A DNA stretch of 61,319 nt from IMG/VR virus record IMGVR_UViG_3300020045_016338, positions 1 to 61,319 of that record; one strand, given 5' to 3'. Position numbers and translations under genes: made by a program. Origin of the DNA: a virus (taxonomy: Duplodnaviria > Caudoviricetes). The number at the start of each line of letters is the position of its first letter. The stretch's first letter is position 1. Below the pieces are notes generated by a model. That model saw nothing but the letters and a program-made list of their open reading frames with translations, was not told the DNA's origin and did not search any database. Below, in pieces: positions 1 to 33,645 of the stretch.

Positions 1-60
1 GACAAGCGGTACCAGCATGTCAGGAACGTCTTGATCACGCCCATCAAGAAGGCCGTATGA
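1..60 (+). CDS. 3' end of small HTH protein (partial), paralogue of 1938-2201
   Basis: Frame 1 reads DKRYQHVRNVLITPIKKAV*, nearly identical to the C-terminus of the 1938-2201 protein. Confidence 0.8.
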   Translation, partial: DKRYQHVRNVLITPIKKAV

Positions 61-242
61 GGGCGGTCGGCATCATCATCGGGGCAGCGGTCATTACGAT
101 CGCTGTCCTACTCGGTCTAACGAAAATATTGTCAAGGACATACCACAATGTCAAATCGAACCAACGAGAACTTCCTGTACCCGCTCATGTCTGTCGAGAC
201 ACTGCGGTCGATCCAGGAACAGTTACTGGGCTTTGTAATTGA
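57..242 (+). CDS. Possible small membrane protein
   Basis: ATGA overlap with upstream stop; hydrophobic N-terminus; overlaps the next ORF by 95 nt. Confidence 0.4.
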   Translation: MRAVGIIIGAAVITIAVLLGLTKILSRTYHNVKSNQRELPVPAHVCRDTAVDPGTVTGLCN

Positions 243-372
243 TCTGACCCAGAACATCAACCATCCGAATGCGACCAATCAGGATCGGACGGAGGTCCTT
301 ACGGATCTAAAAGGACTGATTGATGAAGCAGTCATTATCGGATGGGCAATCGACGAAAAGGAAGGGAACTGA
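148..372 (+). CDS. Hypothetical protein
   Basis: AAGGA RBS upstream; 74 aa; tightly packed with next gene. Confidence 0.7.
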   Translation: MSNRTNENFLYPLMSVETLRSIQEQLLGFVIDLTQNINHPNATNQDRTEVLTDLKGLIDEAVIIGWAIDEKEGN

Positions 373-373
373 C

Positions 374-610
374 ATGACCCACGTTGACATCGACTATTCG
401 AGCCTACAGGGTGTGGCCAAACAGGAGGCCGCCCTCTGGGACATCAAGAACTGGATAGGCATTGAAAAGTTCGAACACCTGACCGCCGAACTCCGAAAAT
501 TCGATCGGGACGAAATGCCACTGGAACGAATGGCCATGCTGATGACTATTGCCGGGATCAGCGGATATCCGATCAGAGCATGGCACGAGTACATCTTCGA
601 CGGTAAGTAA
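374..610 (+). CDS. Hypothetical protein
   Basis: Likely start MTHVDID after AAGGGA; followed by a terminator. Confidence 0.7.
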   Translation: MTHVDIDYSSLQGVAKQEAALWDIKNWIGIEKFEHLTAELRKFDRDEMPLERMAMLMTIAGISGYPIRAWHEYIFDGK

Positions 611-627
611 CTGTCACCAGAACTACG

Positions 628-649
628 GAGGGGCTTCGGCCCCTCTTTT
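628..649 (+). terminator. Rho-independent terminator
   Basis: GAGGGGC-TTCG-GCCCCTC-TTTT. Confidence 0.85.
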
Positions 650-773
650 GGGCTATTTAGGGACCGTGCCAACTATGCGGACCGGGCCTTAACCTGACCG
701 TGCCCTTCATCGCTCGTGCTATAGAGCTGTGGCACTCGCCTGTTTCTGTCGCCTGGTTTCAAAATCTTAAGTG

Positions 774-825
774 CGCCCACTATTTGCCCACTTGCTTGAC
801 CTAATGAAATGCGATATATTATAAT
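774..825 (+). promoter_or_regulatory. Sigma70-like promoter with phage upstream element
   Basis: CGCCCACTATTTGCCCAC then TTGCTT-17-TATATT, or TTGACC-18-TATAAT. Confidence 0.7.
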
Positions 826-847
826 AAAGAATTGTTAGGGGATAACA

Positions 848-979
848 ATGGTAACGAATAACGGGAAGCCAAAGGTAGATGTGGTGGTAATGGCAGAAGG
901 TTTAGCGGTAGGTATCGAGGCAGTGCTGTTCTTCTTAGTCATGGTAGTGATCCTTTTGTTTGACGTAGGTTTTAATTAA
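848..979 (+). CDS. 43-aa single-TM peptide (below ORF-track cutoff)
   Basis: AGGGGA RBS; MVTNNGKPKVDVVVMAEGLAVGIEAVLFFLVMVVILLFDVGFN*. Confidence 0.55.
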   Translation: MVTNNGKPKVDVVVMAEGLAVGIEAVLFFLVMVVILLFDVGFN

Positions 980-986
980 CCTTACA

Positions 987-1038
987 AATATATAATACTA
1001 TACTTTATGAGGTCAATCACTAGGTCAAATGGTGGGCG
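987..1038 (-). promoter_or_regulatory. Leftward promoter, antisense to 848-979
   Basis: Minus strand CGCCCACCATTTGACCTAGTGA-TTGACC-18-TATATT, a mirror of the 774-825 promoter. Confidence 0.6.
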
Positions 1039-1188
1039 CCCTACTTTATTTTACAGGCGGGCTTTGCAGGTCTATAGACCGCACGGTCCCAAGCGCTCGA
1101 GACAGGTCGACCGGGCAGGTCTGACAGGTCATACTATTACCCGCCCGCCCGGTCCTTTTGGCACGGTCCGCACGGTCCCCTTTTGGGC

Positions 1189-1212
1189 AAAAGAAAAGGC
1201 CCCGAAGGGCCT
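1189..1212 (-). terminator. Rho-independent terminator
   Basis: Minus strand AGGCCC-TTC-GGGCCT followed by TTTCTTTT. Confidence 0.8.
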
Positions 1213-1299
1213 GATCCTTAGTTACAGGGTGTAAAGGATCGATGCGAAGACCGCAAGGATCAGTAGGGCTCCGAAGAGCCCGTCCCGATGTGTCATGCC

Positions 1300-1518
1300 T
1301 TATCCTTTCTTTGGTGTGAGGATGTCCTGGAGTAGCTGAAGCATCTTCAGGTCGTCCTGGAGTTGAGCGGCTAGCGCTGCCATGTCTTGCGCTTCGGCCA
1401 CATTGCAGAGTTCGGTCTGAATGTCCCTGCAAGTCATGAGGCAGAACTGTTGGAGGTCGTCTCGCATTGCACGAATCGTAGTGTCCGTGAAGCGCATGCG
1501 GATGAAAAGCTTGTCCAT
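1300..1518 (-). CDS. Hypothetical protein
   Basis: 72 aa; AAGGACAGGT upstream. Confidence 0.65.
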   Translation of the reverse strand: MDKLFIRMRFTDTTIRAMRDDLQQFCLMTCRDIQTELCNVAEAQDMAALAAQLQDDLKMLQLLQDILTPKKG

Positions 1519-1583
1519 GATGTTAGTTACCTGTCCTTTAGTTACTGGGAGTTCAGAGCATTCGCGCTCTGAATGATTAGTCC

Positions 1584-1790
1584 CTAGTGTGCGTTGGTCT
1601 TGTCACCGAACAGATCCGCGAGAATCAGTCGGTACAGCGCGGAGAGTTCGTTGTAGTACGCGAGCTCGTAGTTCTCGTCGTCCTCGAATCTCTCCATGTC
1701 ATACTTGGCATTGAGCTTAGCTACCAGTGGATCCTGATCCAGGATGGCTTTGATCGCATCGTACTGTGCCATGTTAGGAGCCTGTGTCAT
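1584..1790 (-). CDS. Hypothetical acidic protein
   Basis: Start MTQAPN after GAGGT. Confidence 0.65.
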   Translation of the reverse strand: MTQAPNMAQYDAIKAILDQDPLVAKLNAKYDMERFEDDENYELAYYNELSALYRLILADLFGDKTNAH

Positions 1791-1937
1791 ATCATCTACC
1801 TCGGTTGTGGAGGACTGGACTAGTCCGTTTGATGTATTAGGAGACGTCGCGAACTTCATTGCCCGCGACGCATTTTGTTACCGCGAGTAGAACCGCTATC
1901 GTTATGATAGCGGCTCCGATGATCGTGGCGATTAGTC

Positions 1938-2201
1938 TCATTTCGCCTTCTTGATCGGTGTGATCAGAACATTGCGTACATGCTGATAGCGCTTGTTGAG
2001 GAGCTTAGCGATCGCTCCGCGCGACATTCCGTGAGCTGCGAGACCGCGAATGGCTGAGCTCGTAGTCTTGAACTCTTCCATCGCACTCTCGAGCGTGTAT
2101 ACCTTCGGTTCGTCGGAGACCTGATCGATGATGACTTCAGAGACCAGCTCGACTTCGTTGGTTTCAACGGTAGCGAGAGCGTTGTTGTTGTTACGTGCCA
2201 T
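1938..2201 (-). CDS. Small HTH DNA-binding protein
   Basis: SAIRGLAAHGMSRGAIAKLLNKRYQHVRNVL HTH pattern; AAGGA RBS. Confidence 0.7.
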   Translation of the reverse strand: MARNNNNALATVETNEVELVSEVIIDQVSDEPKVYTLESAMEEFKTTSSAIRGLAAHGMSRGAIAKLLNKRYQHVRNVLITPIKKAK

Positions 2202-2229
2202 GGTAGTAGTATCCTTCATATAGCGACTT

Positions 2230-2760
2230 TGTCGCGTTGAGGTTGATTTTGGTAGAGTAACACATTTAGTTGGTATACTTTTCTTATATTACGAGATACT
2301 TACGTATCGTACGTTAGGATCTTATAATATATTAACAATGAGAAAGAGCTTAGTATGTAGAATTCTTTTCGTCTTACATACTATATAAAGTAACAAAGAT
2401 TTTTTTTTCTTTCTTTCTTCTGTTTCTTTATTAAATATAATATAGTATATTTTTTTATTTTTTTCAACATATACTTATTTAATTTACTATTTAATAAGTT
2501 AAAAAAAGTTAATAATTTTTAAGAACGGAATTTTCTTTTTAAGAAACTTCGCGCTTAGGGGTCAAACTATTCCTAGGGATTTTAATAGGCTTAAGAGGCA
2601 CTAATTACACGTGCAGTATTAGTATGATTGTACTCAGAGTCTGTGTTATATTATTAATGCACTCATTAGAGTTACCCGTACAGCGGATCCTTCTATCGCG
2701 GGAATTACCGCTACTGCACTCATGATATAACTGGCGCTCAAAAAAATTTTGGGTCGAAAA
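2230..2760. other. Very AT-rich non-coding region between divergent units (candidate ori or packaging region)
   Basis: Poly-T and poly-A tracts at about 2395-2545; no ORF of 60 aa or more. Confidence 0.55.
2703..2722. repeat. Dispersed repeat AATTACCGCTACTGCACTCA, copy 1
   Basis: 20/20 match to 32771-32790; 17-bp core at 45334-45350. Confidence 0.9.
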
Positions 2761-2768
2761 TTTGGGAC

Positions 2769-2797
2769 TTGAAAGGCCCTTGCTAATGCGCTATTAT
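2769..2797 (+). promoter_or_regulatory. Promoter for the packaging operon
   Basis: TTGAAA-17-TATTAT. Confidence 0.6.
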
Positions 2798-2827
2798 ATT
2801 ATAAAGAGGCAACACTGGGCTAACCAA

Positions 2828-3928
2828 ATGGCGCGAACAACCACTGTCCTAGATTTGACGTCCTCTGAATACTCCGCACAAGCTGAATACAAGCCGCAAA
2901 AGCAAGTGCAAGAACCCGAGTTTATTCAGGATCCGCGTCGATTGGTAGATCCCACGTTGGACGAAGCCAGTGAGCTCCCAGCAGGTGTAGAGCTTGCGTT
3001 CAAGAAGACTCTGCATGGTGCGTTTAAGAACGTCGATCCTGCGCGCGTTGGGACGCATGCTGACCTGATCGCACAGTTGACTCTGGCAATCCCATTAAAC
3101 GAATATGAACTCCCTCCTTTTGTCTACCGAGCTGATATGCTCGATATGGCATATGTCCTCGACACTATCCGTGCGTATCTGGGGCAGAAGAACCCTAGCA
3201 CCACCTCTACTTCTTCCTTTCCCGCTCGAAGCGCGGGTCCCGAAGAGATGCAAGCCCTGCAGCAACATTTGGATGCCGCTACTGTTGCGTTGAACTATTC
3301 CGAGGGCTACCCGCAGCTAGGGAACGGCCAACCATTTTGGGCAAAGTTGGAATTTGAGTCCAATGAAGCATATGCAATGTTCTTGGACTACGTCGCGCTC
3401 GAAGGTATTCGCCAACTCGAAAGTCTCCGCTCGTATAATCCGCGAGACTGTCGCGAAAATTATGCCCTTCATTTCTGGTATTTTCGCGCTAAAGCATTTG
3501 ACCTTTTCAAAGTAGCTGACCACCAGCGGAAACGTCTGACGCGGATGCTGAAGTCCGAAGACGATCATTATACCAAAGCAGAAGCAATTCTCAAGAAGGT
3601 CGTGGGCTACCTTGATGCGGTTGATCTGGAAGATGAAGCCTCTTCTATGGATCCTTCCAAAGCCGTTGCCATGATGGAAAAGCTGGTGAAGATTTCTCGT
3701 ATCAGTATTGGCCTCCCAGCTAACGGCGAATCCAAGGAAAGTGCTGGAAGGCGTACGATATCTCCAACTCGCGTTCTCATTGACGAAATCAACCAAGCAG
3801 GCTCCAGGAAAGCTGAATCTGCCGAGGATGGGTTCGATTTGCTGCTTGACGAGGATGACGATCTGGTCGATATGGCCCAGGATCTTATCATCCGCCGTCA
3901 GCAGCTTAGCCAGGATAACAGAAAGTAA
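2828..3928 (+). CDS. Probable terminase small subunit
   Basis: Directly upstream of TerL; ESNEAYAMFLDY...W..RAKAFD pattern typical of TerS-like proteins; start MARTTT preferred over TTG at 2762. Confidence 0.6.
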   Translation: MARTTTVLDLTSSEYSAQAEYKPQKQVQEPEFIQDPRRLVDPTLDEASELPAGVELAFKKTLHGAFKNVDPARVGTHADLIAQLTLAIPLNEYELPPFVYRADMLDMAYVLDTIRAYLGQKNPSTTSTSSFPARSAGPEEMQALQQHLDAATVALNYSEGYPQLGNGQPFWAKLEFESNEAYAMFLDYVALEGIRQLESLRSYNPRDCRENYALHFWYFRAKAFDLFKVADHQRKRLTRMLKSEDDHYTKAEAILKKVVGYLDAVDLEDEASSMDPSKAVAMMEKLVKISRISIGLPANGESKESAGRRTISPTRVLIDEINQAGSRKAESAEDGFDLLLDEDDDLVDMAQDLIIRRQQLSQDNRK

Positions 3929-3934
3929 CGTCGC

Positions 3935-5476
3935 ATGAAATTCATTAACGGGATTGATCCGCTTGATTCGGCTGCCAATCGTCAGATGGCGGCTCGTTTG
4001 GCGTCGCAGTGGAAGTTGACACCTGCAACTTTTGCACATGAAATCTCCCGCCATCAATGGATTCCGTCAAAGCACCTGATGTATATTTCCTCTCGTGTTG
4101 CCAAAGGTATTGCACGAGGTAATGCCCGTATCATTATCTCTGCCCCGCCTCGTCATGGAAAGAGCCAGCTGACTTCTATTTATACGCCTGCTTGGGTCCT
4201 AGAAAATTTTCCGCACTACAAGACCATTATCACTGGGTATGGCGCCGATCTGGTTACAGGCTTCTCACGTCAAGTACGTGATTTGTTCACGGACCAGTCA
4301 AATTTTGGGCTGCTCAATACCCGCATCAGGAAGGATGCAAGCCGTGTCGAACAGTTCCTTACTGACCAAGGTGGTGGCGTGTTTGCTGTTGGTCTTGGTG
4401 GCGCTATTACTGGTCGTGGTGCGCACGTATTGCTCATTGACGACTATATCAAGGAAATTAAAGAGGCACTTTCCCCAGCTTATCGCGATTATATTTGGAA
4501 TTGGTTTGTTACTACTGCTTTTACACGGCTTGAACCTGGTGGCAGTTGTATTATCATTGCAACTAGGTGGCATTCTGACGACTTGATCGGCCGCATTCTG
4601 AAGAATCTGCCTGAAGAAGGTTGGGAATATATTGAGATCCCTGCAATTGCCGAAGAAAATGACATTATTGGTAGAGCTGTGGGCGAAGCTCTATTCCCTG
4701 AACGATATCCTTTGAAGCGGCTTAAGGAACTTCAGGTAACTCTCGGGTCGGTCTTCTTTAAGGCACTGTTCCAACAGAAGCCTGTGGACGAATCCAAGAA
4801 GATTACTGACCGCAACTGGATTCAGATTATCCCCGAAATCGACTGGATCGCACGGAAAACGCATAGTTGGAAGCGTACACGCATGTGGGACTTTGCTGCC
4901 ACGAAAGATGGCGGCGACTATACCACTGGAACTCTGCTGGCATATGATATAACAACAGGTAATGTGTATGTTGAAAACGTGATTCGTCGCCAAATGTCTC
5001 CTGGACAAGTCGAGACATGTGTCGCACAAACCGCTGCAGCTGATGGATATGACGTTGCAGTGCGTATTGAGCAAGAACCCGGATCTTCTGGCAAAGCTCT
5101 CGTGCACCATTTTGCGACAAATGTGCTCAAGAACTACAAAGTTATTCCTGTTCCAGTTGTTACTAACAAGATCGCACGCGCACAGCCTTTTATTGCGGCA
5201 GCTGAAGCAGGCAAGATCTATTGCATTCTCGGCGGTTGGAACGAATCTTTCCTTAAGGAATTCGATGAATTTCCCGGCTCCGCACATGACGACCAAGTTG
5301 ACACAGCATCTGCAGGATATACCGAGTTGACAGGTAAGGTTGTGTATACAGCTGCCTGGGGAAGAAGTGGTGCATCTGGTAGTACGCGCAATTCGCATGC
5401 AATTGAACAAGCATCCCGTGAAAATGTGGTTAGTTTCTCGACCGGTAGAGTTACCGGGGCAACTTTTGGAAGGTAG
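3935..5476 (+). CDS. terL: Terminase large subunit
   Basis: Walker A PPRHGKS, Walker B LLIDD, TRWHSDD, nuclease motifs WDFA and HDDQVD. Confidence 0.95.
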   Translation: MKFINGIDPLDSAANRQMAARLASQWKLTPATFAHEISRHQWIPSKHLMYISSRVAKGIARGNARIIISAPPRHGKSQLTSIYTPAWVLENFPHYKTIITGYGADLVTGFSRQVRDLFTDQSNFGLLNTRIRKDASRVEQFLTDQGGGVFAVGLGGAITGRGAHVLLIDDYIKEIKEALSPAYRDYIWNWFVTTAFTRLEPGGSCIIIATRWHSDDLIGRILKNLPEEGWEYIEIPAIAEENDIIGRAVGEALFPERYPLKRLKELQVTLGSVFFKALFQQKPVDESKKITDRNWIQIIPEIDWIARKTHSWKRTRMWDFAATKDGGDYTTGTLLAYDITTGNVYVENVIRRQMSPGQVETCVAQTAAADGYDVAVRIEQEPGSSGKALVHHFATNVLKNYKVIPVPVVTNKIARAQPFIAAAEAGKIYCILGGWNESFLKEFDEFPGSAHDDQVDTASAGYTELTGKVVYTAAWGRSGASGSTRNSHAIEQASRENVVSFSTGRVTGATFGR

Positions 5477-15527: not shown

Positions 15528-18500
15528 ATGGCTATTAATCTAGGCGATATCAATTTTGGTCTAGGGCCGGATACCCGCCGCCTTGAAGCTGCGCGACGGC
15601 TTATTGTGCAGTTTGGTCAAGACGTTAATCGTGCGGCAAAATTGCAAGCCGATGGCGCTCGTGCAGCTGAGGCAGCTCTTCGTCGTCAAGAAAGGGCCCT
15701 TGTTTCAGCTTCTCAGCAAGCGGCCAATCTAAATTCCGCCATTCGCCGTTCTGCAGGTTCGGAAAAGCTTATTGACGATGTCAACAGAGCATTCGAGCGA
15801 TTGTCCCGTGAGATGACTGCTGGAACGCAGACTGCTTTGCAATATCAGCGGTCTCAAGAAGGTTTCCAAGTTACTGTTGCTAGAGTTGCACGTGCGCTTA
15901 AAGAAGAGCAGCAGGCAATTCAACAGGCTGCGACTGCCCAAAAGGAAGCAGCTGCAATTGCAGTAAAATCAGCCAAAGAGATTGAGTCGGCGCAACGTAC
16001 CGCTGTTAAGCAGGCGTTCGACATGGCCCGAGCTCAAGAACAAGCCGCGATGCAAACATCGAAGGCTTTCTTCAATGCTGAGAAGAGTGTCACAGCTTTC
16101 AATGCTGCAGTCGCACGTGTTAAGGCTCCTACTTCATTGTCTGGACAAGCCAATAATCTAATGGCACAGTTCCAGAATGCATTTAATTCAGCTGGAACGT
16201 CAAAAACTGGGCAGATGCAGTCTATTCAGGCCTTTAAGAAAGGAATGGCAGAACTCTCGGTTGAACTTGACAAGTTCAAGGCTAAGGCAAGAGAAGCCGG
16301 CCGTTCTGGAATGGAAGAAAGCCTCCGTAGACTTGCTGACGTATCAGTGTTGGTATCTGGTCCAATGTCAGGTCTTGCGACCCGATTGCAGTTGATCTCA
16401 TCGTTGGCAGGACGAGTCTCGATAGCAACCGCTGCTATGGTTACTGGACTTGCTGCAGGTGCATATGCATTTGTACAGCTTGGCAAAGGCGCAATTGAAG
16501 CCAATAAAGGCTTCGAACGTATTGATATGGCTTTGACTTCATTGTCAGGCAGTTCAACTATTGCTGCAGTTCAAATGGCCAATCTTATGCGTACGTCTGA
16601 TACTGCGGGGACTTCGTTCCTATCTACTGCACAGATGTTCACGCAACTTGAAGCAGCATCTGCAGGAACAAATCTGGAAGGCGAAGCAACCAAGAAGCTG
16701 TTTGAACAGATTACCTTTGCATCTACTAAGATGGGACTATCGCAACAGGATCTTGAAGGCGCATTGCGTGCTGTTTCGCAGATCATGTCCAAGGGTACCG
16801 TTTCGGCAGAAGAACTTCGCGGGCAGTTGGGCGATAGAATTCCAGGTGCCGTCAACATCATGGCGAAGGCTTTGGGAGTCTCTACTGCCAAGCTTGGCGA
16901 ATTGATGAAGAAGGGGCAAGTGTCATCCGATGCACTGATCAAGTTTGGGGATGAATTGGCGCGGAGACTAGGAGTTGATACTACTAAGGCAATTGATAAC
17001 ACAGTTGCGGCAGAGAATCGACTTGAAACAGCACTATACCGTTTCAACAAGGCTTTGGATGAGAGTGTAGGATACTCTTTGGTATATAAAGCGGCACTTA
17101 AAGGACTAGTTGATGTAATTGACTGGTTTGCCACTAACATTGATGGAGTATTTAAAACAATTGGTGCTGCCGCTGGAGCTGCCGCTGCCGGGATGGCGTT
17201 GATGTATGCTCCAGCACTAATTTCGGGACTAACTGCTGTACTTGGATTGATACGCGGACTTGCAGTTGCAATGGTTACGTTTACTACTGCAACTCTCGCT
17301 AATCCTTTAGGCGCAATTGCAGGATTGCTTGTACGTCTAGCAATTGTTGCTTCAGGTGCAGCTGTCGGCTATGAACTTATGACAGCAGCAATCGGTGATA
17401 CCGCTTCTGCACATGCTGGAGCTATTCCTGAAGTCCGTCAGTATATTCGTGCCCAGGAAGATATGAAGTATTCCATTCGCGATACGACAATGGAATATAT
17501 CAAACAGCAGGAAGTAATGCTTCAAGGACTTAAGAACCAGATTAATCAGGTTCGTTTGTCTAAGCAACAAGCAGAAAAGACTCTGTTCTCGGAAGAGGGC
17601 GGATACACTATGGATCCGATTACCGGACAACCTATGTTGGATCCGACGTTGCAGGCTGCTGCTGCTGCAACCCTCAAGCAGACCGAAGGACAGTTGCAGA
17701 CGCTGAATGCCAGTGTTCGTCAAGCATCGGAAGATAATGCTAAACTGAATGAGATCCTCAAGAAGCAGACGGAGATTGAAAAGAAGCGATCTGATGGACT
17801 CTCCGACTTTACCGAAGGTACAAAGAAGAGCTCCTCGGCAGTCTCTAATGCAATGGATCAGGCGAACGACGATATTCGCAAAGTTCAAGCTGCTTTGGAA
17901 ATGCAAGGACTGCCAAAGTATATGCAGGAATGGGCACGTGTACAAGCGGGTATCAATGAAAGCATTGATCAATTCCGCGATAAGCTCGTGCAAGCTAAAG
18001 TACCATTGGATGTAATTAACGCTAAGACGGCCGAGTATGGAACTCTGCTGCGCAAGCTTAAAGAAGGCGAATATTACATCAAGACCACCACCTCCTCATG
18101 GGAAGCTTTGAGTGGCGTGTTGTCGAGGGGCATGGATAATGCAATGTCCACAATGGTTGATGATATCATGAACGGTGTTTCAGCAATGGAAACACTTCGT
18201 AATGTCGGTAAAGCCGTTGTTGCTGATTTGCTAAAGACCTTCTTGCAGTTGTCTATTGTTAACCCTTTGAAGAATGCCCTATTTGGAGGGGATACTTCTT
18301 CCGGGATGCCTTTCCAAACGCTATCAGGCGGTTTGATTGGATCGCTATTCGGAGGGCTTGGAGGTGCTGTTAATGGAGGAGGCGCAGGAGCACATCTTGC
18401 AGGCGGTACTCCTAACTGGAAAGGCGGAATGACTTGGGTTGGTGAGAATGGGCCTGAACGAGTTTCATTACCTCGAGGTAGTCGTGTAACCCCCACACAT

Positions 18501-18722
18501 CGTAGTAGTGGGCGTAACGCGGGTAATGGAACATCGGAAATTGTCATTACATTCGATAATGACGGCTTTAAGAGTTATGTTAAAAAAGCCGCAGATGCAG
18601 CCGCCACTGAAAAAACAGCTATAGGCCTTCAAAAGGGGTTGGATCATTACGGCGAAACAAAGTTTGGCGACCATTTCGAAAAACACATCAAACATCGCCG
18701 TTGGCGGGGAGCGACTAAATAA
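15528..18722 (+). CDS. Tape measure protein
   Basis: 1064 aa, Ala-rich; QIMSKGTVSAEELRGQLGDRIPGA and VGENGPE motifs. Confidence 0.92.
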   Translation: MAINLGDINFGLGPDTRRLEAARRLIVQFGQDVNRAAKLQADGARAAEAALRRQERALVSASQQAANLNSAIRRSAGSEKLIDDVNRAFERLSREMTAGTQTALQYQRSQEGFQVTVARVARALKEEQQAIQQAATAQKEAAAIAVKSAKEIESAQRTAVKQAFDMARAQEQAAMQTSKAFFNAEKSVTAFNAAVARVKAPTSLSGQANNLMAQFQNAFNSAGTSKTGQMQSIQAFKKGMAELSVELDKFKAKAREAGRSGMEESLRRLADVSVLVSGPMSGLATRLQLISSLAGRVSIATAAMVTGLAAGAYAFVQLGKGAIEANKGFERIDMALTSLSGSSTIAAVQMANLMRTSDTAGTSFLSTAQMFTQLEAASAGTNLEGEATKKLFEQITFASTKMGLSQQDLEGALRAVSQIMSKGTVSAEELRGQLGDRIPGAVNIMAKALGVSTAKLGELMKKGQVSSDALIKFGDELARRLGVDTTKAIDNTVAAENRLETALYRFNKALDESVGYSLVYKAALKGLVDVIDWFATNIDGVFKTIGAAAGAAAAGMALMYAPALISGLTAVLGLIRGLAVAMVTFTTATLANPLGAIAGLLVRLAIVASGAAVGYELMTAAIGDTASAHAGAIPEVRQYIRAQEDMKYSIRDTTMEYIKQQEVMLQGLKNQINQVRLSKQQAEKTLFSEEGGYTMDPITGQPMLDPTLQAAAAATLKQTEGQLQTLNASVRQASEDNAKLNEILKKQTEIEKKRSDGLSDFTEGTKKSSSAVSNAMDQANDDIRKVQAALEMQGLPKYMQEWARVQAGINESIDQFRDKLVQAKVPLDVINAKTAEYGTLLRKLKEGEYYIKTTTSSWEALSGVLSRGMDNAMSTMVDDIMNGVSAMETLRNVGKAVVADLLKTFLQLSIVNPLKNALFGGDTSSGMPFQTLSGGLIGSLFGGLGGAVNGGGAGAHLAGGTPNWKGGMTWVGENGPERVSLPRGSRVTPTHRSSGRNAGNGTSEIVITFDNDGFKSYVKKAADAAATEKTAIGLQKGLDHYGETKFGDHFEKHIKHRRWRGATK

Positions 18723-23830: not shown

Positions 23831-24245
23831 TATGACAATGGAAGTTCTTTACTACATTACCGCTACCGGGGAAATTTCCGGATCAGCTCAATACGAAGAT
23901 GACACTTTGCCGGCGACAATAGACGCTGATATAGATCCACTGACGGAGGATTGGATCCTTGGTTCTGGGGATTATGACGAGGATTATATAACAGGAGGAG
24001 TTGTTACAGAACGCCCGCAGATTGTCGATTACAATGAAATTACTCTGCAGGCTAATGGAGTGACAAACCTTGACTTCGTACTACCCACTGGAACCAAGGT
24101 AACATACAACAATGCAACTGTAACTTCCACGGCGTCTGAACATTTTCAAGTACGCTCTGTTCTCAACGGAGAGTTCGTATTTGACTTTGATCCGCCCTTC
24201 CCCTACCGGCAGCTCCAACTCACGGTGATTTTCAATGCTGTATGA
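23831..24245 (+). CDS. Tail-associated hypothetical protein
   Basis: YY...TGEI..S start typical of small tail accessory proteins. Confidence 0.6.
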
Positions 24246-27200
24246 TCTTGTACAAAAAGCCGCACCAACTAGTGTTACAGGGCTTTCCAAGCCGAAAGCA
24301 AATCGGATCAGCTATACTGAAGTGACCGATGAGCGCTTGGACTTCTATGTAATCTACAAGTATGCCAGCTCGTCAGATGCGGCAAGCCATATCAATATCC
24401 TCGAGACGATCGTTACCTATGAGACGATCTATTCCGATCATTCCAACATGACTGCAGGCGTTGCTTATTGGTATCGAGTCAGCTACTACGACACCGATGT
24501 CAATGAATCGTTGAAGTCAACAGCCATTTCGGTCACCTATCAGGCAATTCTCGACACGGACACGTCACAAGATGATCCTAATGTGCCGACGGTGGCACTG
24601 GCGTCCTATACTGGTGATTACGATAACGATGGAGACATCGATACAGGTCTTACCATCACTGCAACTCCTGGAACGGTTGACGCAACTCATCCGAAGGCTG
24701 TGAGTTATGTGGTACAACTCTGGAAGTCGGCAACCAGCGGTGGAACCTATGTGTTCCACAAGCGTTATCCTATGCCCGAAACCGTGCTTGAGGTTGAAGT
24801 CCCTCAGAAATGGTTCTACAAAGCAATCATTAAGGCAGTCGGATGGAATGGGGTTGCTTCGGCCTTTTCGACGCTACCTGTTGGAGCTACTGGAGTCCAA
24901 CCAGCGCAGTACCTTGGTAGCATCCCGACGCCAGCAGCACCAACGATCACGCCAGTCGCAAACGGTATGGCTATTTCATGGCCGGATCCGTCTATCGCTG
25001 CCCCGACCTACAAGACGCACAAGGAGACAATCGTCTTCGTTGGGGGTGTAGAAGTATGGCGCGGCGCTGGTACGAAATTTACCGATACGACTGCCAGGAC
25101 TGTCGACACGAGCTACACCTACACCCTGCAGAACGTTGACAAACAGGGACGAGTAGGAACGGTTAGCAGTGGGACTGCGGCTGTTTATCGTGCAGTTCGC
25201 GATACGGACACTTCGCAAGACGATCCTAATCCTCCATCTGTTTCCCTCGCCTCGTACACAGGTGATGCAGATAACGATGGAGACATTGACACTGGCTTAA
25301 CGATCACGGTTACGCCGGGTGCTGTTGATGCCACACATCCGAAAGCGGTCAGCTATATTGTTCAGCTTTGGAAATCAACCTCTAGTGGCGGATCGTATTC
25401 ATTCTTCAAGCGCTATCCGATGCCGGAAACGGTCCTGGAGGTTGCTGTTCCGCAGAAGTGGTTCTACAAGGCAGCTGTGCGTGCGGTCAGTTTTAATGGT
25501 ATTGTGTCTACGCTAACGACTTTGCCTGTAGGTGCGACTGGCATACAGCCTGCACAATACCTAGGATCTATTCCTACCCCCGCTGCTCCGAGTGTTACGC
25601 CAGTTGCAAATGGTATGCAGATCGCGTGGACTGCTCCTGCGTACTCGACGCATAAAGAAACGATCGTATTCGCAGATGGTGTCGAAGTTTGGCGGGGTGC
25701 AGGTACTCGGTATATCGACGTTACACTTCGTTCTATTGGCACATCCTACACATACACTTTGCAGAACGTAGATAAGCAAAACCGTGTTGGAAGTGTGAGT
25801 TCTGGGGCTGCGGCTGTTTATCGGGGGCTGAGTGGTAACGAAAGCAACACTCTCGACGTCTCGGTGATGGCCGAGAATAACGATCTCAGCCTTGGTCCGA
25901 ACATCGGTTGGTCAAACTCTACCCTGATTGTAAGTGATCCAACAAATGCCTATAAGGGTGAGTACGTTATCAAGAGAGCCTATACAGGCGCTGCATCCAG
26001 TACTACAAACCGGAATAAATACCTCTTTCCTGTGAGAGCAGGAGAAGTGTATTACATTGGAGGTATGCTTAAGACGGATGCTTCTTGGGCGGGCAGCTCG
26101 TATTACTACCGGATTAGTTTTTGCACGGATGCCACTGGTGCGACAGAAGTTGCAACAGCCAATGGGCCGATAAACACTACCGTAAACACCAGCTGGTTTG
26201 AGACTGGTGGATTTGTAACAGTCCCTACAACCTCAACGATTGCTTATGCTCGTATAGAATTTGTCACACTCAACCAGACCGCAGGAACTGTCTTCGGATC
26301 TCATTGCTACTGCCGTGCGGAAACCTCCAAGAGCGTTATGCCTGGAGGCATTTTGCAGACACAAGCTGACCAGTCTGCCCCATCTATCCCAACAGTCTCA
26401 CTCGCCTCATATACCGGGGATATTGATGCTGATGGTGACGTGGACACAGGACTCACTATTACGGTCACCCCAGGTGTCGTGGATGCAACGTATCCAAAGG
26501 CTGTCGGTTACATTGTTCAGCTTTGGAAATCAACGACGAGCGGGGGGACATATACGCTTCACCGCAGAGTTCCGATGTCGGAAACGGTTACTGAAGTCAA
26601 GACGGCACAGAAATATTTCTACAAGGCAATCGTGAAGGCCATTAGCTTCAGTGGTGTGGTTTCTACGTTCTCCACGCTACCTTCTGGTACAACTGGAGAA
26701 GTACAACCAGCTAAGTATCTGGGATCTATTCCGACACCCTCGGCTCCGTCGGTCACTCCTATCGCTAACGGAATGTTGATCGCTTGGGCTGATCCTATCA
26801 TTGCAACTCCAGCATTTACCAACCATAAAGAAACCATCGTCTTTGTTGGCGGGGTGGAAATCTGGAGAGGCAAGGGTACTAAGTTCACGGACACCACGAT
26901 CCGAACGGTTGGCACCTCGTACACGTATACCCTTCAGAATGTTGATACACAATCGAGGGTTGGGAGCGTGAGCTCTGGGACAGCGATTGCCTACCGTGCA
27001 GCGAGCTCTGTTGAAATCGGAGTGGGTGCTGTAACCGCGAGCAACATTGGTCCTGATGCAGTTACCAGTGTTAGCTTGTCATCGTTTGACACATCGAATA
27101 TGGTCCGCGACCCTCAGTGTCTGCACCCATCACTTTGGGCCACAAATAGTGGAATAATTGCCTCGACTGCTACCGGCTTGATCTCCGCAAGTACAAATCG

Positions 27201-30200
27201 TCTGACTAGCACGGCAAATACCGCAACTGTGTGGATAAGCTCTCTTGATACAGATATTGCTGTCGAGGTTGGTCGAGCATACTACGCATCCGCATTTATA
27301 GACATGAATACTGGTACGGCAAACATGCGGTTTATGATCCAATGGTTTTCCATGGACATCTCCGGTGTGACAACCTTGATTGCCACCGATACGCTATTCA
27401 ATGGTTCGGTCTCAAGTTGGTTGGCTGTTAGCGGCGTTGCGGTTGCTCCCGCAAATGCGCGACGTGCTAAGATCCTGGTCCAGAAAGACGCCACGGCAAC
27501 CGCGCTCGACTTCACCTTCCACAGCCCCACCTTTCGTAAGGCGACAGACTCCACGACGCTGACCACTGGTTATGGTTCTAACCAGTTTGAAAACGCTGAT
27601 TTTGTCGCGGGCACAACTGGTTGGGGGATGCGTGCCTCTAACTTACCCGCGAACTTTGCACTCAGCCTGCGTACCGACACTTATGGTGTTGGGTACGGCT
27701 CTCTGCAAGTCTACCAGAACAATGGCACAACAGCTGTATACTACGATGCATGCCAATACAACCATTTGGGGGTCAGGCATTTTCCAATAACTCCCGCCAA
27801 GACATACGAGGCATCTGTTTACTACCTTGGACATCGTTACGATTCAGTTGTGCTGTATCTCCAATGGTTGGACAAAGATAAGGGGCATCTCTCTTTCTCT
27901 AACCTTGACTCCGCAACAACTCCTCGGGATAGCAACCCGGTTAGCCTCTTGTCCAACTATGGGCGCATGTGGGGTAAGGCTGTTGCGCCGACAGGGGCTG
28001 CTTACTGCATACCGTTCTTCCGTCATGGAGGTACACTTTCTGGGCAGGCTGATAGTTATGTCTGGTGGAACAGACCATTGTTCGGAGAATGTAACCCCAA
28101 CCAGCTCGAGGCGTCGCCGTGGGTTCCTGGCCCTCTTACGATAGTCTCGTCCGGGTATACGGATCCAACTCCTCCTCCAGTACCGTCTGTCTCTCTTGCC
28201 TCGTATACCGGCGATGCCGATAATGATGGTACGGTTGACACTGGCCTCACGGTAACGGTCACCCCCGGTACTGCGACCACTGTAGACCCGGTCAGTTACA
28301 TCGTACAGCTGTGGCGTTGCGACACCATAGGTGGAACCTATGTGTTCCACAAAAGGTATCCAATGCCTGAGACTGTTCGAGAAATTGAAGTCCCTCAACG
28401 GTATTTCTACAAAGCGATCGTAAAGGCCGTCAGCTTCAGTGGAGCTGTTTCTGCATTCTCGACGCTGCCGGGGGGATCTACAGGTGTACAGCCTGCCAAG
28501 TATCTCGGAACGATCCCAACACCTTCAGCCCCTGCAGTGACTCCTATTGCCGGTGGAATGTTGATTGCCTGGCCTGATCCAAAGATCGCAACGCCTGCGT
28601 ACACCGCACATAAGGAGACGATTGTATTCGTCGGCGGCGTGGAAGTCTGGAGAGGTGCTGGAACTAAATTTACCGACCCAACTATTCGTACTGCCGGTAC
28701 ATCCTACACGTATACTCTTCAAAATGTGGATGTACAGGATCGCGTTGGAACTGTGAGCTCAGGAACGGCGGCAACCTATCGATTGATCGCAGCAACTGAC
28801 ACTACGCAGACTGCTCTGGCTGTACCTGGAAATATACCAGTACTGACTCAGACTAGTCAGGATATCGACGGGGATGGATCAACGGACATCGCAATTTCTG
28901 TTACGTACACGACAGTTGCTGGGGCGACGTCCCATGAGCTTGAAATCAGCACATGTACCACTGTTGGTGGAACGTATGTAGTTCAGGAAATTATCCCTGC
29001 CACTGTCTCCCTCAGTAAGGAATTTGCTGCACTCACTACCCTGTATTACAAGGTTCGTTCTCGTGGGGTAGGATTCAATGGTGTCGCTGGTGGATGGTCA
29101 AATCCATCGACCGCATTGAAGCCAGTGAAACCAGCGAACACTGTACCAACTGTCGGTACACCAACCGTTGTTGCCTTCGCAGGCTTCAATCGTGTAACAG
29201 CACCGACTGTGGCAATCAGCAATCTGAAAAGATACAATGTGTACTCATACATCGGGACAACAACTACCCCTGGTTCAGCAGTACTGGTTGGATCAATCAC
29301 TGCAGGTAATCCCTTCGATGACGCTCGTACACTACTGGTGGATGGGAATACATGCTGGTATTATCTGACTGCAGTGGACAGCTGGGATAATGAAAGCGCA
29401 GCTAAATCTACAGGAGCGAGCACAGTATACCGAATCGTTGAACCTGGAGATGTGTCCTCAGATGCGATCATTCCCTCAAAGGTATTTCCGCGAGACTTCA
29501 CGAAATTGAATCGTGATTCGGAAATGATCGAATTGGCTAATTATACGTTTACTAACGCACCGACAACTGCGCGTATTGTTAATACAACAATGGGTCCAAG
29601 TCGGTTTGCCATTTCCATGACACGAACTGGCTCAGCTGTAGACACCTACATGTACGGGACTAAAGATACTCCTGTGGAGGAATTTACTAGGTATTTGTTC
29701 TCAGGATATGTCAATATTCCTGCATCAACTGTTGCACTCATTTATGTCGAATGGTATAATGTTGATGTGAGCGGGATTCCTAGCAATCTTATATCCACAT
29801 CAGCTGGCATAGCAGTTGCATCAGCTGCTGGAATTTCATCATTTGATGAAGTCTTCGTTGCTCCTGCTGCTGCACAGGCCGCTAGACTTGTAATTGAATT
29901 TACTGGGGGAACCACGACCAGTAATTTCCGGGTGGCTTCACTATGCTTTAGACGTATGATACATTCCCATGACTATGTTGATAGGTCAATTGACAACAAC
30001 AAACTTAATGGCTTACCACTAAACTATCTCAGCGGCTTTGAACTCTCTAATTATGGGCCGGATCCGGTAAATGATATTGAGGTCGAAGTAGGTGAGTGTG
30101 CTAGTTCCGCCGGTGACCGTATTGTACTCGCTACATCCCTTGTAAAACGGTTGGATGCAGCATGGGCAGCTGGAGACAATGGAGGAGGGCTTGATACCGG

Positions 30201-30741
30201 AACAATTGCAAACGCGGTATACCATGTGTTTGCCATTCGCAACCCAACAACAGGGGTTTCGGATATAATATTTTCGACCGGTGTTACTGCACCAACTGTA
30301 ATGCCATCCGGATACACACAGTCGAGACGCATCGGATCGATCATTCGAGTTGGAGGGACTATCCTACCCTTCTCCCAGAAGGGGGATGAATTCTTGCTAG
30401 TAACAGGAATACTTGATGTTAACGTTACTACACTGGGGACATCTGAGACCAGTCAATTACTAACAGTACCGACTGGTATCAAGGTTAATGCATTGGTCCG
30501 AATCAATGGTAGTAATGCATCTAGCTGGGCAGTGGCTGTTTCCAGCTATGATGAAGCGAATTTGCCGCCTAGCTTTGCAGGTGGTGTCGTTGACATCGGA
30601 GGAGGAGCTGGTGTCGCCAGTGCAACTCCTAAACAGGTACGTACTACCACTGCAGGGCTGGTGCGTTCAAGATCATCTGCAGCTTCTACCACGCTGCGTA
30701 TCCTCACCTATGGGTGGATCGACACCCGCGGTAAGGGTTAA
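24235..30741 (+). CDS. Large modular tail fibre with internal repeats
   Basis: 2168 aa; four about 216-aa repeats plus one degenerate copy; CBM-like inserts; C-terminal Y...RRIGSI fibre domain. Confidence 0.85.
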   Translation: MLYDLVQKAAPTSVTGLSKPKANRISYTEVTDERLDFYVIYKYASSSDAASHINILETIVTYETIYSDHSNMTAGVAYWYRVSYYDTDVNESLKSTAISVTYQAILDTDTSQDDPNVPTVALASYTGDYDNDGDIDTGLTITATPGTVDATHPKAVSYVVQLWKSATSGGTYVFHKRYPMPETVLEVEVPQKWFYKAIIKAVGWNGVASAFSTLPVGATGVQPAQYLGSIPTPAAPTITPVANGMAISWPDPSIAAPTYKTHKETIVFVGGVEVWRGAGTKFTDTTARTVDTSYTYTLQNVDKQGRVGTVSSGTAAVYRAVRDTDTSQDDPNPPSVSLASYTGDADNDGDIDTGLTITVTPGAVDATHPKAVSYIVQLWKSTSSGGSYSFFKRYPMPETVLEVAVPQKWFYKAAVRAVSFNGIVSTLTTLPVGATGIQPAQYLGSIPTPAAPSVTPVANGMQIAWTAPAYSTHKETIVFADGVEVWRGAGTRYIDVTLRSIGTSYTYTLQNVDKQNRVGSVSSGAAAVYRGLSGNESNTLDVSVMAENNDLSLGPNIGWSNSTLIVSDPTNAYKGEYVIKRAYTGAASSTTNRNKYLFPVRAGEVYYIGGMLKTDASWAGSSYYYRISFCTDATGATEVATANGPINTTVNTSWFETGGFVTVPTTSTIAYARIEFVTLNQTAGTVFGSHCYCRAETSKSVMPGGILQTQADQSAPSIPTVSLASYTGDIDADGDVDTGLTITVTPGVVDATYPKAVGYIVQLWKSTTSGGTYTLHRRVPMSETVTEVKTAQKYFYKAIVKAISFSGVVSTFSTLPSGTTGEVQPAKYLGSIPTPSAPSVTPIANGMLIAWADPIIATPAFTNHKETIVFVGGVEIWRGKGTKFTDTTIRTVGTSYTYTLQNVDTQSRVGSVSSGTAIAYRAASSVEIGVGAVTASNIGPDAVTSVSLSSFDTSNMVRDPQCLHPSLWATNSGIIASTATGLISASTNRLTSTANTATVWISSLDTDIAVEVGRAYYASAFIDMNTGTANMRFMIQWFSMDISGVTTLIATDTLFNGSVSSWLAVSGVAVAPANARRAKILVQKDATATALDFTFHSPTFRKATDSTTLTTGYGSNQFENADFVAGTTGWGMRASNLPANFALSLRTDTYGVGYGSLQVYQNNGTTAVYYDACQYNHLGVRHFPITPAKTYEASVYYLGHRYDSVVLYLQWLDKDKGHLSFSNLDSATTPRDSNPVSLLSNYGRMWGKAVAPTGAAYCIPFFRHGGTLSGQADSYVWWNRPLFGECNPNQLEASPWVPGPLTIVSSGYTDPTPPPVPSVSLASYTGDADNDGTVDTGLTVTVTPGTATTVDPVSYIVQLWRCDTIGGTYVFHKRYPMPETVREIEVPQRYFYKAIVKAVSFSGAVSAFSTLPGGSTGVQPAKYLGTIPTPSAPAVTPIAGGMLIAWPDPKIATPAYTAHKETIVFVGGVEVWRGAGTKFTDPTIRTAGTSYTYTLQNVDVQDRVGTVSSGTAATYRLIAATDTTQTALAVPGNIPVLTQTSQDIDGDGSTDIAISVTYTTVAGATSHELEISTCTTVGGTYVVQEIIPATVSLSKEFAALTTLYYKVRSRGVGFNGVAGGWSNPSTALKPVKPANTVPTVGTPTVVAFAGFNRVTAPTVAISNLKRYNVYSYIGTTTTPGSAVLVGSITAGNPFDDARTLLVDGNTCWYYLTAVDSWDNESAAKSTGASTVYRIVEPGDVSSDAIIPSKVFPRDFTKLNRDSEMIELANYTFTNAPTTARIVNTTMGPSRFAISMTRTGSAVDTYMYGTKDTPVEEFTRYLFSGYVNIPASTVALIYVEWYNVDVSGIPSNLISTSAGIAVASAAGISSFDEVFVAPAAAQAARLVIEFTGGTTTSNFRVASLCFRRMIHSHDYVDRSIDNNKLNGLPLNYLSGFELSNYGPDPVNDIEVEVGECASSAGDRIVLATSLVKRLDAAWAAGDNGGGLDTGTIANAVYHVFAIRNPTTGVSDIIFSTGVTAPTVMPSGYTQSRRIGSIIRVGGTILPFSQKGDEFLLVTGILDVNVTTLGTSETSQLLTVPTGIKVNALVRINGSNASSWAVAVSSYDEANLPPSFAGGVVDIGGGAGVASATPKQVRTTTAGLVRSRSSAASTTLRILTYGWIDTRGKG

Positions 30742-31167: not shown

Positions 31168-32328
31168 ATGATTAAGGCAATTACAGTACTCAATGCTTTG
31201 AAGTTGTCCGGAGTTAATTCGGTATACATTAAGGCTATCCAGAACGCTGATGACACGAATCTCTGGGCTCAATGGGATATCTCTACTGATCTGCGTATGG
31301 CAATGTATCTGTCGCAGATTTTGACCGAGAGTGGCGGGCTTCGTTCTATTCGCGAGAACATGAGCTATTCGGCATCGCAGATCTCAAAGGTCTTCGGCGT
31401 CAATAAACACTCGGCTGCAGTCACCACAACCGAAGCTGCAAAGCTTGCACACAATCCGCAGGCACTTGCAGAACGCGTATATGGACTTGGCAATCCGCGG
31501 AAAGCACGTGAGCTCGGCAACACCCGTCCCGGAGACGGATATAAAATGCGTGGCGGAGGCCCTCTGCAAACAACTGGGGGTAATTCCTATAAACATGCGG
31601 GTGAACTCATCGGGATTGATCTCTATGGTAATCCTGATCTGATTGCAGATCCGCGGTATATTCTTCAGCCCTCACTTATCTTTTGGCGTGAACGTGGTTG
31701 CAACGTCCCCGCAGATGCTAACGACATTGCATCGCTCACCCGCAAGATTAACGGCGGTATGAATGGGTATGCAGATCGTGTTGCATGGTTTAACCGCATC
31801 TGGAAAATTATTCAGGCATCTCCCACCACCTCTACCGAAGAGTCCCCAATAAGTGTCGGTACGGGCGATCCTGAAATAAGAGCACTGCAATATGCCCTTA
31901 ATACGCTCGGCGCCAACCCTCGGCTCAAAGAAGATGGGATCATGGGTAAAGCGACTGAGACTGCTGTACGAGCATTTCAAAGAGCAAACAAGCTCCACGT
32001 CGATGGGATTGTTGGGCCAGTAACGCAAGCGGCCATTGATGCACGTATGTCGCCTGGGAAAGTTGCGCCTCTTTTGTCGACGACTCAAGAGCCTATCGTA
32101 GAACATGCAACTGCACGTAACCTAGGAGCCAGTTTGACTGCTGTTAGTGTAGTCGCTGAACAAGGGCTTAGCAAAGTCCAACAGGTAAAAGAGATGCTTG
32201 GCGACAATATCTATCTCCAAGTAGGTTTGGGCGTTGTGCTTCTAGCGGGCCTTGGATTTATTCTCTATGCCTACATCAGCAAATATATGCGTGAGAACAC
32301 CACGATTCTTCTTGGCAAGGAGGACTAA
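31168..32328 (+). CDS. Endolysin: GH19-like domain, PG-binding domain and C-terminal TM
   Basis: ESGGL..RENMSY, LGN...GDG.K.RG.G..Q.TG, TRKINGG.NG; DGIMG..T..AVRAFQ...L.VDGIVG; hydrophobic C-terminal helix. Confidence 0.9.
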   Translation: MIKAITVLNALKLSGVNSVYIKAIQNADDTNLWAQWDISTDLRMAMYLSQILTESGGLRSIRENMSYSASQISKVFGVNKHSAAVTTTEAAKLAHNPQALAERVYGLGNPRKARELGNTRPGDGYKMRGGGPLQTTGGNSYKHAGELIGIDLYGNPDLIADPRYILQPSLIFWRERGCNVPADANDIASLTRKINGGMNGYADRVAWFNRIWKIIQASPTTSTEESPISVGTGDPEIRALQYALNTLGANPRLKEDGIMGKATETAVRAFQRANKLHVDGIVGPVTQAAIDARMSPGKVAPLLSTTQEPIVEHATARNLGASLTAVSVVAEQGLSKVQQVKEMLGDNIYLQVGLGVVLLAGLGFILYAYISKYMRENTTILLGKED

Positions 32329-32982: not shown

Positions 32983-33645
32983 CTATTTGCCGACTTTGGA
33001 TAGTGCAAGGAATTCCTGTCGCAGTTCAGGGACTTCACGGAACTTCCCGCTTAGGCGAGAGGTAACAGTTTCAGATCCAGCATCACGTACTCCTCGAAGA
33101 CGTACACAGTAATGTTCGGCGCGTATAACAACGGCGACATCATCAGTGTCCAGGATGTACCGAAGAGCTGCAGCGACTTGTTCTGTAAGCCTCTCTTGGA
33201 TCTGCGGCCTCCGTGCGAAGAAGTCCACCACCCGGTTGAATTTGGAAAGCCCAAGAACTTTATCCCCGGGCACATATCCGATAGTAGCCTTACCCACAAA
33301 GGGCAGGAAGTGGTGCTCACACAAGGACATAACGTTGATGTTGTCGACAGCAACCATCTCCTGATAATGCATTTTGTTCTCAACGGTGGTAGATTTGGGA
33401 AAGTGGCCATAGTCAAGCCCCGTGAAGATTTCATCGCAATACATCTTGGCGACACGCTTCGGGGTATCCTTCAAGCTGTCGTCATCACGATCGAGGCCGA
33501 GGTGATTCATTATACCAGCAAACTGCTCGCAAATGACTCCCTTGGCATCAACGCTTCGGTCAATATTCACCATAGGAGTCTCAAGCCCGAGGGCTTTCAA
33601 CAACTCATGGATTTCCATCCCAAGATTCTTGTCATATTCTGCCAT
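32983..33645 (-). CDS. folE: GTP cyclohydrolase I
   Basis: TPKRVAKM, SLCEHHFLPF, GLSKFNR, RRPQIQERLT, HYC..RG. Confidence 0.97.
   Translation of the reverse strand: MAEYDKNLGMEIHELLKALGLETPMVNIDRSVDAKGVICEQFAGIMNHLGLDRDDDSLKDTPKRVAKMYCDEIFTGLDYGHFPKSTTVENKMHYQEMVAVDNINVMSLCEHHFLPFVGKATIGYVPGDKVLGLSKFNRVVDFFARRPQIQERLTEQVAAALRYILDTDDVAVVIRAEHYCVRLRGVRDAGSETVTSRLSGKFREVPELRQEFLALSKVGK

Follow-up and report, generated by a model that had tools for sequence, protein, structure and literature searches.

Mirrored terminator-box units at a convergent early-operon junction of a siphovirus-like phage, with a probable rearrangement scar at the centre

The subject of this study is a mirror-shaped intergenic region near the left end of the IMG/VR virus record IMGVR_UViG_3300020045_016338, in which two terminators, two arrays of short boxes, and two promoter-like sites are arranged symmetrically around a 43-amino-acid (aa) open reading frame (ORF). 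In coliphage 186, face-to-face promoters each lead into a full operon, and the pair constitutes the lysis-lysogeny switch; in type I toxin-antitoxin loci such as fst/par and txpA/ratA, two convergent RNAs overlap; and in the early region of phiC31, intergenic units composed of a terminator, a conserved inverted repeat (a short protein-binding sequence), and an early promoter are repeated. Convergent promoters are described as a cause of transcriptional interference (PMC5001618). The stoperators of cluster A mycobacteriophages are described as short intergenic protein-binding sites whose orientation follows transcription, and were proposed to stop elongating RNA polymerase (PMC9283540).

The sequence analysed (hereafter, the window) is the entire record of 61319 bases (b), which is classed as linear and has a CheckV completeness estimate of 100%. 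In a first-pass annotation, the region had been described as a symmetric, insulated cassette around a membrane peptide, and all of the elements listed there (terminators, boxes, promoters, the 43-aa ORF, and CGCCCAC(T/C)ATTTG elements) are present (Table 1). The best reading of the region, which we regard as moderately probable, is that of a convergent early-operon junction, the centre of which is the scar that a rearrangement left between a pair of insulating modules. Two early operons of the phage, which is siphovirus-like, would converge here, each closed by an intrinsic terminator and then by one or more GGACC(G/A)G(G/T)C boxes from ~15-18 nucleotides (nt) past the hairpin; each unit would also bear a tandem TTGACC promoter and the first codons of a helix-turn-helix (HTH)-type gene, as do the units that lead into the next operon in relatives. 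With the modules facing each other, the promoters would fire head-on across ~150 base pairs (bp), and the 43-aa (plus-strand) and 35-aa (minus-strand) ORFs would be truncated gene starts that run into each other's antisense strand. The centre would thus be the scar either of an inversion whose breakpoints fell within the N-terminal regions of two HTH genes that ran in one direction, or of an inverted duplication with its centre near 880.

The two convergent operons of small genes (left, 1 to 610, plus; right, 2219 to 1222, minus) are separated by a gap of 611 bp (611-1221), and each is headed by a paralogous HTH gene followed by a tiny membrane ORF. On both sides, a hairpin and a T-run were found directly behind the last ORF of the operon. 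The two outer terminators point into the region and close the operon on their side, as had been proposed. The mirror symmetry is real, with a mean column identity of 72% between the arms (611-850 and the reverse complement of 977-1230), and it extends beyond the span first described, since 2-125 and 1873-1996 are also inverted repeats (73%), which correspond to the paralogous HTH and small membrane genes. The fragment of HTH' at the left end is 94% identical to the C-terminus of HTH93 (profile match, E 7e-9), and TM' shares 60% identity over 25 aa with TM34.

The first box begins 15 nt (left) and 18 nt (right) past the hairpin, with plus-strand boxes behind the plus operon and minus-strand boxes behind the minus operon. 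The exact form, GGACCGKGC, occurs six times in the record, always inside the region (0.81 expected; none of 100 shuffles reached six), and one-mismatch copies are located at 695 (+) and 1108 (+). When one mismatch was allowed, the count for the whole record (13) was below the shuffle mean (18.95), and thus what is unusual is the exact form and the way in which it clusters. Both predicted promoters are of the sigma70 type by sequence, with hexamers 18 bp apart (16-18 bp is typical), and nowhere else in the record do two strong promoter-like sites face each other within 400 bp. The CGCCCAC(T/C)ATTTG element lies upstream of both; searched as CACYATTTGMC, it was not enriched record-wide (5 matches versus 4.0 expected).

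For the comparison with relatives, 76 loci (designated by L-numbers such as L004 and L138) were examined, and these were dereplicated to 56 loci for the scans of terminators and promoter pairs; a scan of viral contigs with the HTH profile returned 65 loci. GGACCGKG was found in 23 of the 76 loci, with 40 distinct sites in total, the six of the window included. A simple terminator finder was run over the dereplicated loci, and GGACC was sought within 30 nt past the T-tail. On the strand of the HTH genes, GGACC followed 32 of the 98 terminator-like sites, against a background of 2.7% (p 5e-26), and the true fraction is higher because false positives inside genes are counted among the 98; on the opposite strand, GGACC followed 3 of 59. 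The terminator-GGACC composite was present at least once in 27 of the 56 loci, and the distance from the hairpin to GGACC was 17-18 nt in 21 of the 32 cases, even though the hairpin sequences themselves differ. Neither the repeats nor the terminators are peculiar to the cassette; together they make up the usual unit at operon ends throughout the phage group. In several relatives (L138, L192, L143/L140, L004, and L007), the boxes are followed by 100-250 bp of GC-rich (guanine- and cytosine-rich) sequence and then by a promoter that has TATAAT and a pair of TTGAC motifs 11 bp from each other. Behind this promoter come a 5' hairpin and the following gene, which is often an HTH paralog. The right promoter of the window with its upstream element showed 76% identity over 72 nt to a promoter of this kind in L193; tandem TTGAC promoters similar to it were found in L138 and L192, a similar upstream element in L007, and a similar post-promoter AATTGTTAGG hairpin in L138. 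Since the same modules are found in relatives, each arm is read as one terminator-box-promoter module.

The nearest cultured relatives by terminase (~40% identity) are the Brevundimonas phages MaInes and StAshley; for MaInes, morphotype, genome statistics, and genus grouping are reported (PMC10070969). In MaInes, the HTH protein of which is MAINES_00460, a short HTH operon converges on a long opposing operon; the junction lies at 20.9-21.1 kb of its record and consists of a terminator, GGACCGGTCC, ~110 bp, GGACCGGTCC, and an opposite-strand terminator, with the boxes 16-18 nt from each hairpin. This palindrome has two matches in the 69-kb MaInes genome with up to one mismatch allowed, both at the junction, and no phage context for it was found in the literature among the matches listed. 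In L181, terminators stand back to back, with a GGACC box behind the plus-strand one. Because the junctions of MaInes and L181 are alike in this way, the outer layers of the mirror are regarded as an ordinary convergent junction of the group. Conservation in relatives, which had been suggested as a check, was thus borne out for the symmetry of the outer terminators and boxes, which is seen again where operons converge in relatives, and failed for the 43-aa ORF and the head-on promoters.

The centre differs from these outer layers, in that the head-on promoters and the 150 bp separating them are peculiar to this genome. The 43-aa ORF had been called unannotated; its product is in fact listed among the proteins predicted from this contig, and among 5.8 billion protein clusters, the only match was this protein itself. 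No match was obtained in Pfam, PHROGs, NCBIfam, or PADLOC, and none by tblastn in the 76 loci of relatives. Its hydrophobicity maximum (Kyte-Doolittle, 19-residue window) is 2.96, at residues 19-37. On the minus strand, the order is promoter, ~50 nt, AAGGA, and ATG ACT AAG AAG AAC. By blastn, the start of the 35-aa ORF matched the starts of HTH genes in L008 (86% of 29 nt) and in the third HTH gene of L198 (83% of 30 nt), and the protein starts are MTKKNS (35-aa ORF), MSKKNT (L008), MTKNNT (L198), and MARNNN (HTH93). Real genes have codon scores of 0.18 +/- 0.09, and 0-4.6% of the stop-free non-coding frames reach the values of the two ORFs; codon usage cannot choose between them because both score gene-like. 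We take the 35-aa ORF to be ~20 initial codons from an HTH-type gene, followed by the reverse complement of the left module, and the 43-aa ORF to be ~9 hydrophilic codons (MVTNNGKPK), followed by the reverse complement of the truncated gene. The junction would then lie near 873 +/- 10, and the Val-rich "membrane" core of the 43-aa ORF is read as the antisense of a Thr/Ser/Ala-rich N-terminus. The 43-aa peptide would be, at best, a young orphan gene.

Several points weigh against the scar. The matches of the minus-strand ORF to HTH gene starts extend over just 29-30 nt (E 0.006-0.07). Among the frames of relatives, 2 of 81 HTH frames and 0 of 5945 others contain the pattern M[STA][KR][KN]N; this pattern was derived from the same examples, and only the empty background is informative. 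An inversion predicts a second junction ~100-160 b beyond the left end of the contig, close to where the contig stops, and this breakpoint falls outside the record. Within the window, the boxes occur only in this region and at no other terminator, which a unique DNA site would also fit. Moreover, both promoters are near-consensus despite the 28% divergence of the arms, which could mean selection for head-on function, and the 43-aa ORF has a promoter, Shine-Dalgarno-like bases in the loop of the 5' hairpin, and a gene-like codon score (0.146).

These last points are shared by the reading in which the region works as a sense/antisense pair: a rightward messenger RNA for the 43-aa membrane peptide (a toxin, a holin-like protein, or an exclusion factor) would be controlled by a fully overlapping antisense RNA, as a type I toxin-antitoxin-like system or a convergent-promoter switch. 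The two consensus-grade promoters would give an overlap of ~150 nt, the pair is unique in the record, the ORF has a hydrophobic core, and tiny membrane ORFs are recurrent in these early operons. Nonetheless, we hold this reading to be improbable, for the peptide is without a homolog or family match, and the antisense ORF is equally gene-like and matches HTH gene starts. No Rfam match was found in 1-3000 with E up to 1; both predicted central transcripts fold no better than shuffles (z 0.33 and 1.29); and the inner hairpins behind the head-on promoters, which would have to terminate short transcripts, are weak (-8.2 and -6.4 kcal/mol, z -1.9 and -0.7). In relatives, head-on pairs of strong promoters are not enriched (5 in 56 loci, about the chance number estimated from site density), and none was found at the convergent junctions examined, that of MaInes included. 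Of the sense/antisense proposal in the first-pass annotation, overlapping transcripts remain plausible because two consensus-grade promoters face each other, and a control function is unsupported; the type I toxin-antitoxin-like proposal retains only the small hydrophobic ORF, with no family, Rfam match, or conserved pair. The head-on promoters would produce overlapping transcripts and transcriptional interference, and no evidence of selection for interference was seen.

The scar itself could be questioned in another way, namely that the inverted left part is not the true consensus, being an amplification or assembly chimera or one state of an inversion polymorphism in the population, with the left operon co-directional in reality. 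The HTH paralogs, of which there are one to four per relative, are all co-directional in 70 of the 73 loci that have them; the inverted block begins ~870-885 b from the left end of the contig, which stops inside HTH' and within ~100-160 b of the estimated second inversion junction; and both central ORFs look like the beginnings of genes interrupted at a single point. The arms, however, are just 72% identical, which contradicts a plain fold-back of a single locus, and no long exact inverted repeat is located at the junction; exact inverted pairs within the cassette reach at most 12 nt (at 661/1158). Furthermore, the exceptions to co-direction (L181 and L182, which have the same arrangement, and L194) carry convergent HTH operons well inside long contigs, and mirror terminator-box junctions are also found in a cultured phage. 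We therefore give such an artefact or polymorphism a low probability.

A DNA site, either an origin of replication, with arrays of iterons on both sides of a transcribed centre, or a signal that terminase or the 388-aa protein would recognise for packaging, appears very unlikely. The boxes do form an inverted array that is unique in the genome and 2.7 kb from the terminase gene, the MaInes box is found only at its junction, and several long contigs of relatives end 0.1-3.5 kb from their HTH genes; these ends, however, do not coincide with boxes. One relative has a direct terminal repeat, an overlap of 127 b that is read as assembly overlap. The fixed spacing of 17-18 nt to the terminators points to a role in transcription, and relatives carry several box clusters per early region. 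The origin that had been proposed is also not favoured by composition, since the centre (41% GC versus 48.7% for the genome) is not AT-rich (adenine- and thymine-rich) and the zone 2220-2761 beside the terminase operon (30% GC) is far more so, nor by position, since the primase-helicase gene is at 57183-59615, and the arrangement is not conserved in relatives. That zone (542 bp, 29.7% GC), which separates HTH93 from the divergent 388-aa/terminase genes, contains long runs of T as well as several promoter-like sites and is a better candidate for an origin or packaging site than the cassette.

In the favoured reading of the region as a junction with a scar, the boxes would act in termination. 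This role is preferred because boxes are absent from the promoter regions of the HTH genes and are present at the MaInes junction, which has no downstream promoters. The HTH paralogs are the obvious candidates for box binding because they co-occur with boxes throughout the group. A protein bound to a box ~10 bp past the release point would stand before the leading edge of a polymerase that has paused at the U-tract, and by halting this polymerase would increase termination and insulate the neighbouring operons; the central transcripts would be by-products. A bolder version, which we put forward tentatively as possible yet unlikely, is that the GGACC boxes are docking sites for "RYQHVRNVL" HTH proteins and form a protein-reinforced terminator or insulator of the whole lytic-looking siphovirus group, the cultured Brevundimonas phages included, and that here two such insulators enclose a head-on pair, the overlapping transcripts of which express or silence a newly born hydrophobic micro-protein from the antisense of a broken gene.

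Table 1. Predicted features of the mirror-shaped region, its flanking operons, and the remainder of the window
Feature	Position	Strand	Remarks
HTH' (second HTH paralog), 3' end	1-60	+	19 codons and stop; cut by contig end; translation DKRYQHVRNVLITPIKKAV
TM', small membrane ORF behind HTH'	57-242	+	From ORF list; overlaps next gene
74-aa gene, left operon	148-372	+	Codon score 0.167; no family match
78-aa gene, last of left operon	374-610	+	Full-length homologs (35-41% identity) in L199, L178, L185
Left intrinsic terminator	627-650	+	Hairpin 627-645, -17.2 kcal/mol, z -2.78, then T-run
Left box array	661-703	+	GGACCGTGC at 661, GGACCGGGC at 679, TGACCGTGC at 695
Left upstream element and sigma70-like promoter	770-825	+	Facing right; TTGACC-18-TATAAT at 796-825, 11/12
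5' hairpin of rightward transcript	831-849	+	-4.6 kcal/mol, z -6.2; AGGGGA Shine-Dalgarno-like bases in loop
35-aa ORF	835-942	-	Codon score 0.172; ribosome-binding site, ATG, and first codons like HTH-family gene starts
43-aa hydrophobic orphan ORF	848-979	+	Codon score 0.146
Right sigma70-like promoter, tandem TTGACC, and upstream element	987-1045	-	Facing left; TTGACC-18-TATATT at 1016-987, 10/12
Right box array	1081-1178	-	1081, 1147, 1161, and 1170 (-); near-match at 1108 (+)
Right intrinsic terminator	1212-1189	-	Hairpin, -14.7 kcal/mol, and T-run
24-aa membrane-like ORF, last in right operon	1222-1296	-	
72-aa and 91-aa genes, right operon	1300-1859	-	Codon scores 0.139 and 0.182
TM34, small membrane ORF behind HTH93	1837-1941	-	
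HTH93, canonical "RYQHVRNVL" HTH gene	1938-2219	-	Divergent from p388 (388-aa)/terminase genes
Large terminase	3935-5476		Rightward structural module; PHROG match
Portal, head protein			Rightward structural module; PHROG matches
Tape measure	15528-18722		Rightward structural module; PHROG match
Endolysin	31168-32328		Rightward structural module; PHROG match
DNA polymerase, ribonucleotide reductase, thymidylate synthase, QueD/QueE-like, and GTP cyclohydrolase genes			Leftward replication/nucleotide module
Primase-like (primase-helicase) 810-aa protein	57183-59615		Leftward module

As for the boxes elsewhere, a terminator-like hairpin at ~56608 (minus) is followed by GAGGACTAGTCAC. A palindrome, GGACTAGTCC, recurs beside GGACC boxes in L140, L143, L144, L149, L154, L155, L161, and L163, and may be a second type of box. 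A scan of viral contigs with a degenerate two-box pattern gave at least 120 unrelated matches and was unusable.

The HTH family was characterised as follows. By tblastn, HTH93 had matches in 73 of the 76 loci, and a homolog of the 388-aa protein was found in 67 of the 76, mostly on the strand opposite the HTH genes by the listed coordinates. The R(Y/F)QH.R.V motif is invariant across the HTH proteins; their only matches were to HTH_23/HTH_29 and were sub-threshold, and a search of PDB sequences with the HTH profile was uninformative (just designed repeat proteins and weak homeobox matches). The protein atlas entry of HTH93 begins at residue 6. In the window, as in several relatives (MaInes included), the HTH gene has a tiny membrane-like ORF directly behind it; examples of such tiny ORFs are 57-242, 1837-1941, and 1222-1296 in the window, 2378-2503 in L007, 3658-3734 in L181, and 4199-4324 in L202. 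The HTH gene and the micro-membrane-protein gene look like a conserved pair. In the window, TM' overlaps the following gene by 95 nt, unlike its 34-aa paralog TM34; the stop codon of TM' may have been lost, or the ORF call may be too long. The 74-aa protein of the left operon resembled a 91-aa protein of L004 by eye, and this was dropped because BLASTP did not confirm it at E up to 1. In L181, tandem 10-nt repeats (CAGGGCTTTA-like) lie at 4395-4460, where the promoter region separates the HTH gene from the homolog of the 388-aa protein.

The layout of the window is of the siphovirus type by PHROG matches. No integrase or repressor family was found in the window by PHROG matching, and the phage group is apparently lytic. 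Positions 1-2400 of the window had no DNA match to GenBank phages, and an exact 30-mer of the left operon had no second copy in viral contigs. At the record ends, no overlap, terminal repeats, or inverted terminal repeat was found, and the first and last 3 kb are dissimilar. The left end cuts the HTH' gene 19 codons before its stop despite the completeness rating; the plus frame that is open at the right end is unlike an HTH N-terminus and is antisense to a better ORF. L130 and L132 belong to one metagenome contig of 118578 b with two terminase copies 61023 b apart (67% terminase identity), which looks like a concatemer-like assembly of a relative and would imply a circular or permuted map of ~61.0 kb. 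A 2168-aa ORF (24235-30741) at the end of the tail module had no PHROG match at E <= 0.001. The GTP cyclohydrolase, QueE-like, and QueD-like genes (32983-33705 and 41901-43237) suggest that the phage DNA may carry a 7-deazaguanine modification.

The cassette is probably a rearrangement scar, and neither a toxin-antitoxin nor an origin should be assumed here unless data support it. Of greater interest is the terminator-GGACC composite, which is clade-wide, in a large and mostly uncultured phage group that can be recognised by a small HTH gene pointing away from the divergent terminase operon. Should the box be bound by a phage protein, this would be a simple case of protein-assisted termination or operon insulation outside the mycobacteriophage stoperator system, and MaInes, a cultured phage bearing the mirror junction, offers a system for its study. 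The centre would be a case in which a rearrangement placed a promoter and a ribosome-binding site before the antisense of a broken gene and thereby gave rise to a hydrophobic ORF.

Among the systems described at the outset, the region shares with type I toxin-antitoxin loci a small hydrophobic ORF (43 aa, below 60) overlapped by a possible antisense transcript, and it differs from them in having no family match, conserved RNA structure, or conservation of the ORF, and only weak hairpins in place of defined terminators. As in the face-to-face promoters of coliphage 186/P2, two promoters would fire at each other over a short distance; unlike in 186, no downstream gene beyond an ORF of 35-43 codons follows either promoter of the window, and the arrangement is not conserved in relatives. 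With the repeated early units of phiC31, the likeness is one of layout, and the sequence and the phage group (apparently lytic here) are different. Compared with the stoperators (binding sites of the L5 gp71 repressor), the GGACC boxes keep a fixed distance of 17-18 nt from the intrinsic terminators that precede them, have a length of 9-10 bp, form partial palindromes (a perfect one in MaInes), and in their exact form are confined to the early HTH region (661-1178 in the window) rather than genome-wide; no stoperator-domain repressor and no integrase was found in the window, where the HTH proteins are candidate box binders. Like stoperators as they have been described, the boxes stand behind operon ends on the transcribed strand (32/98 versus 3/59).

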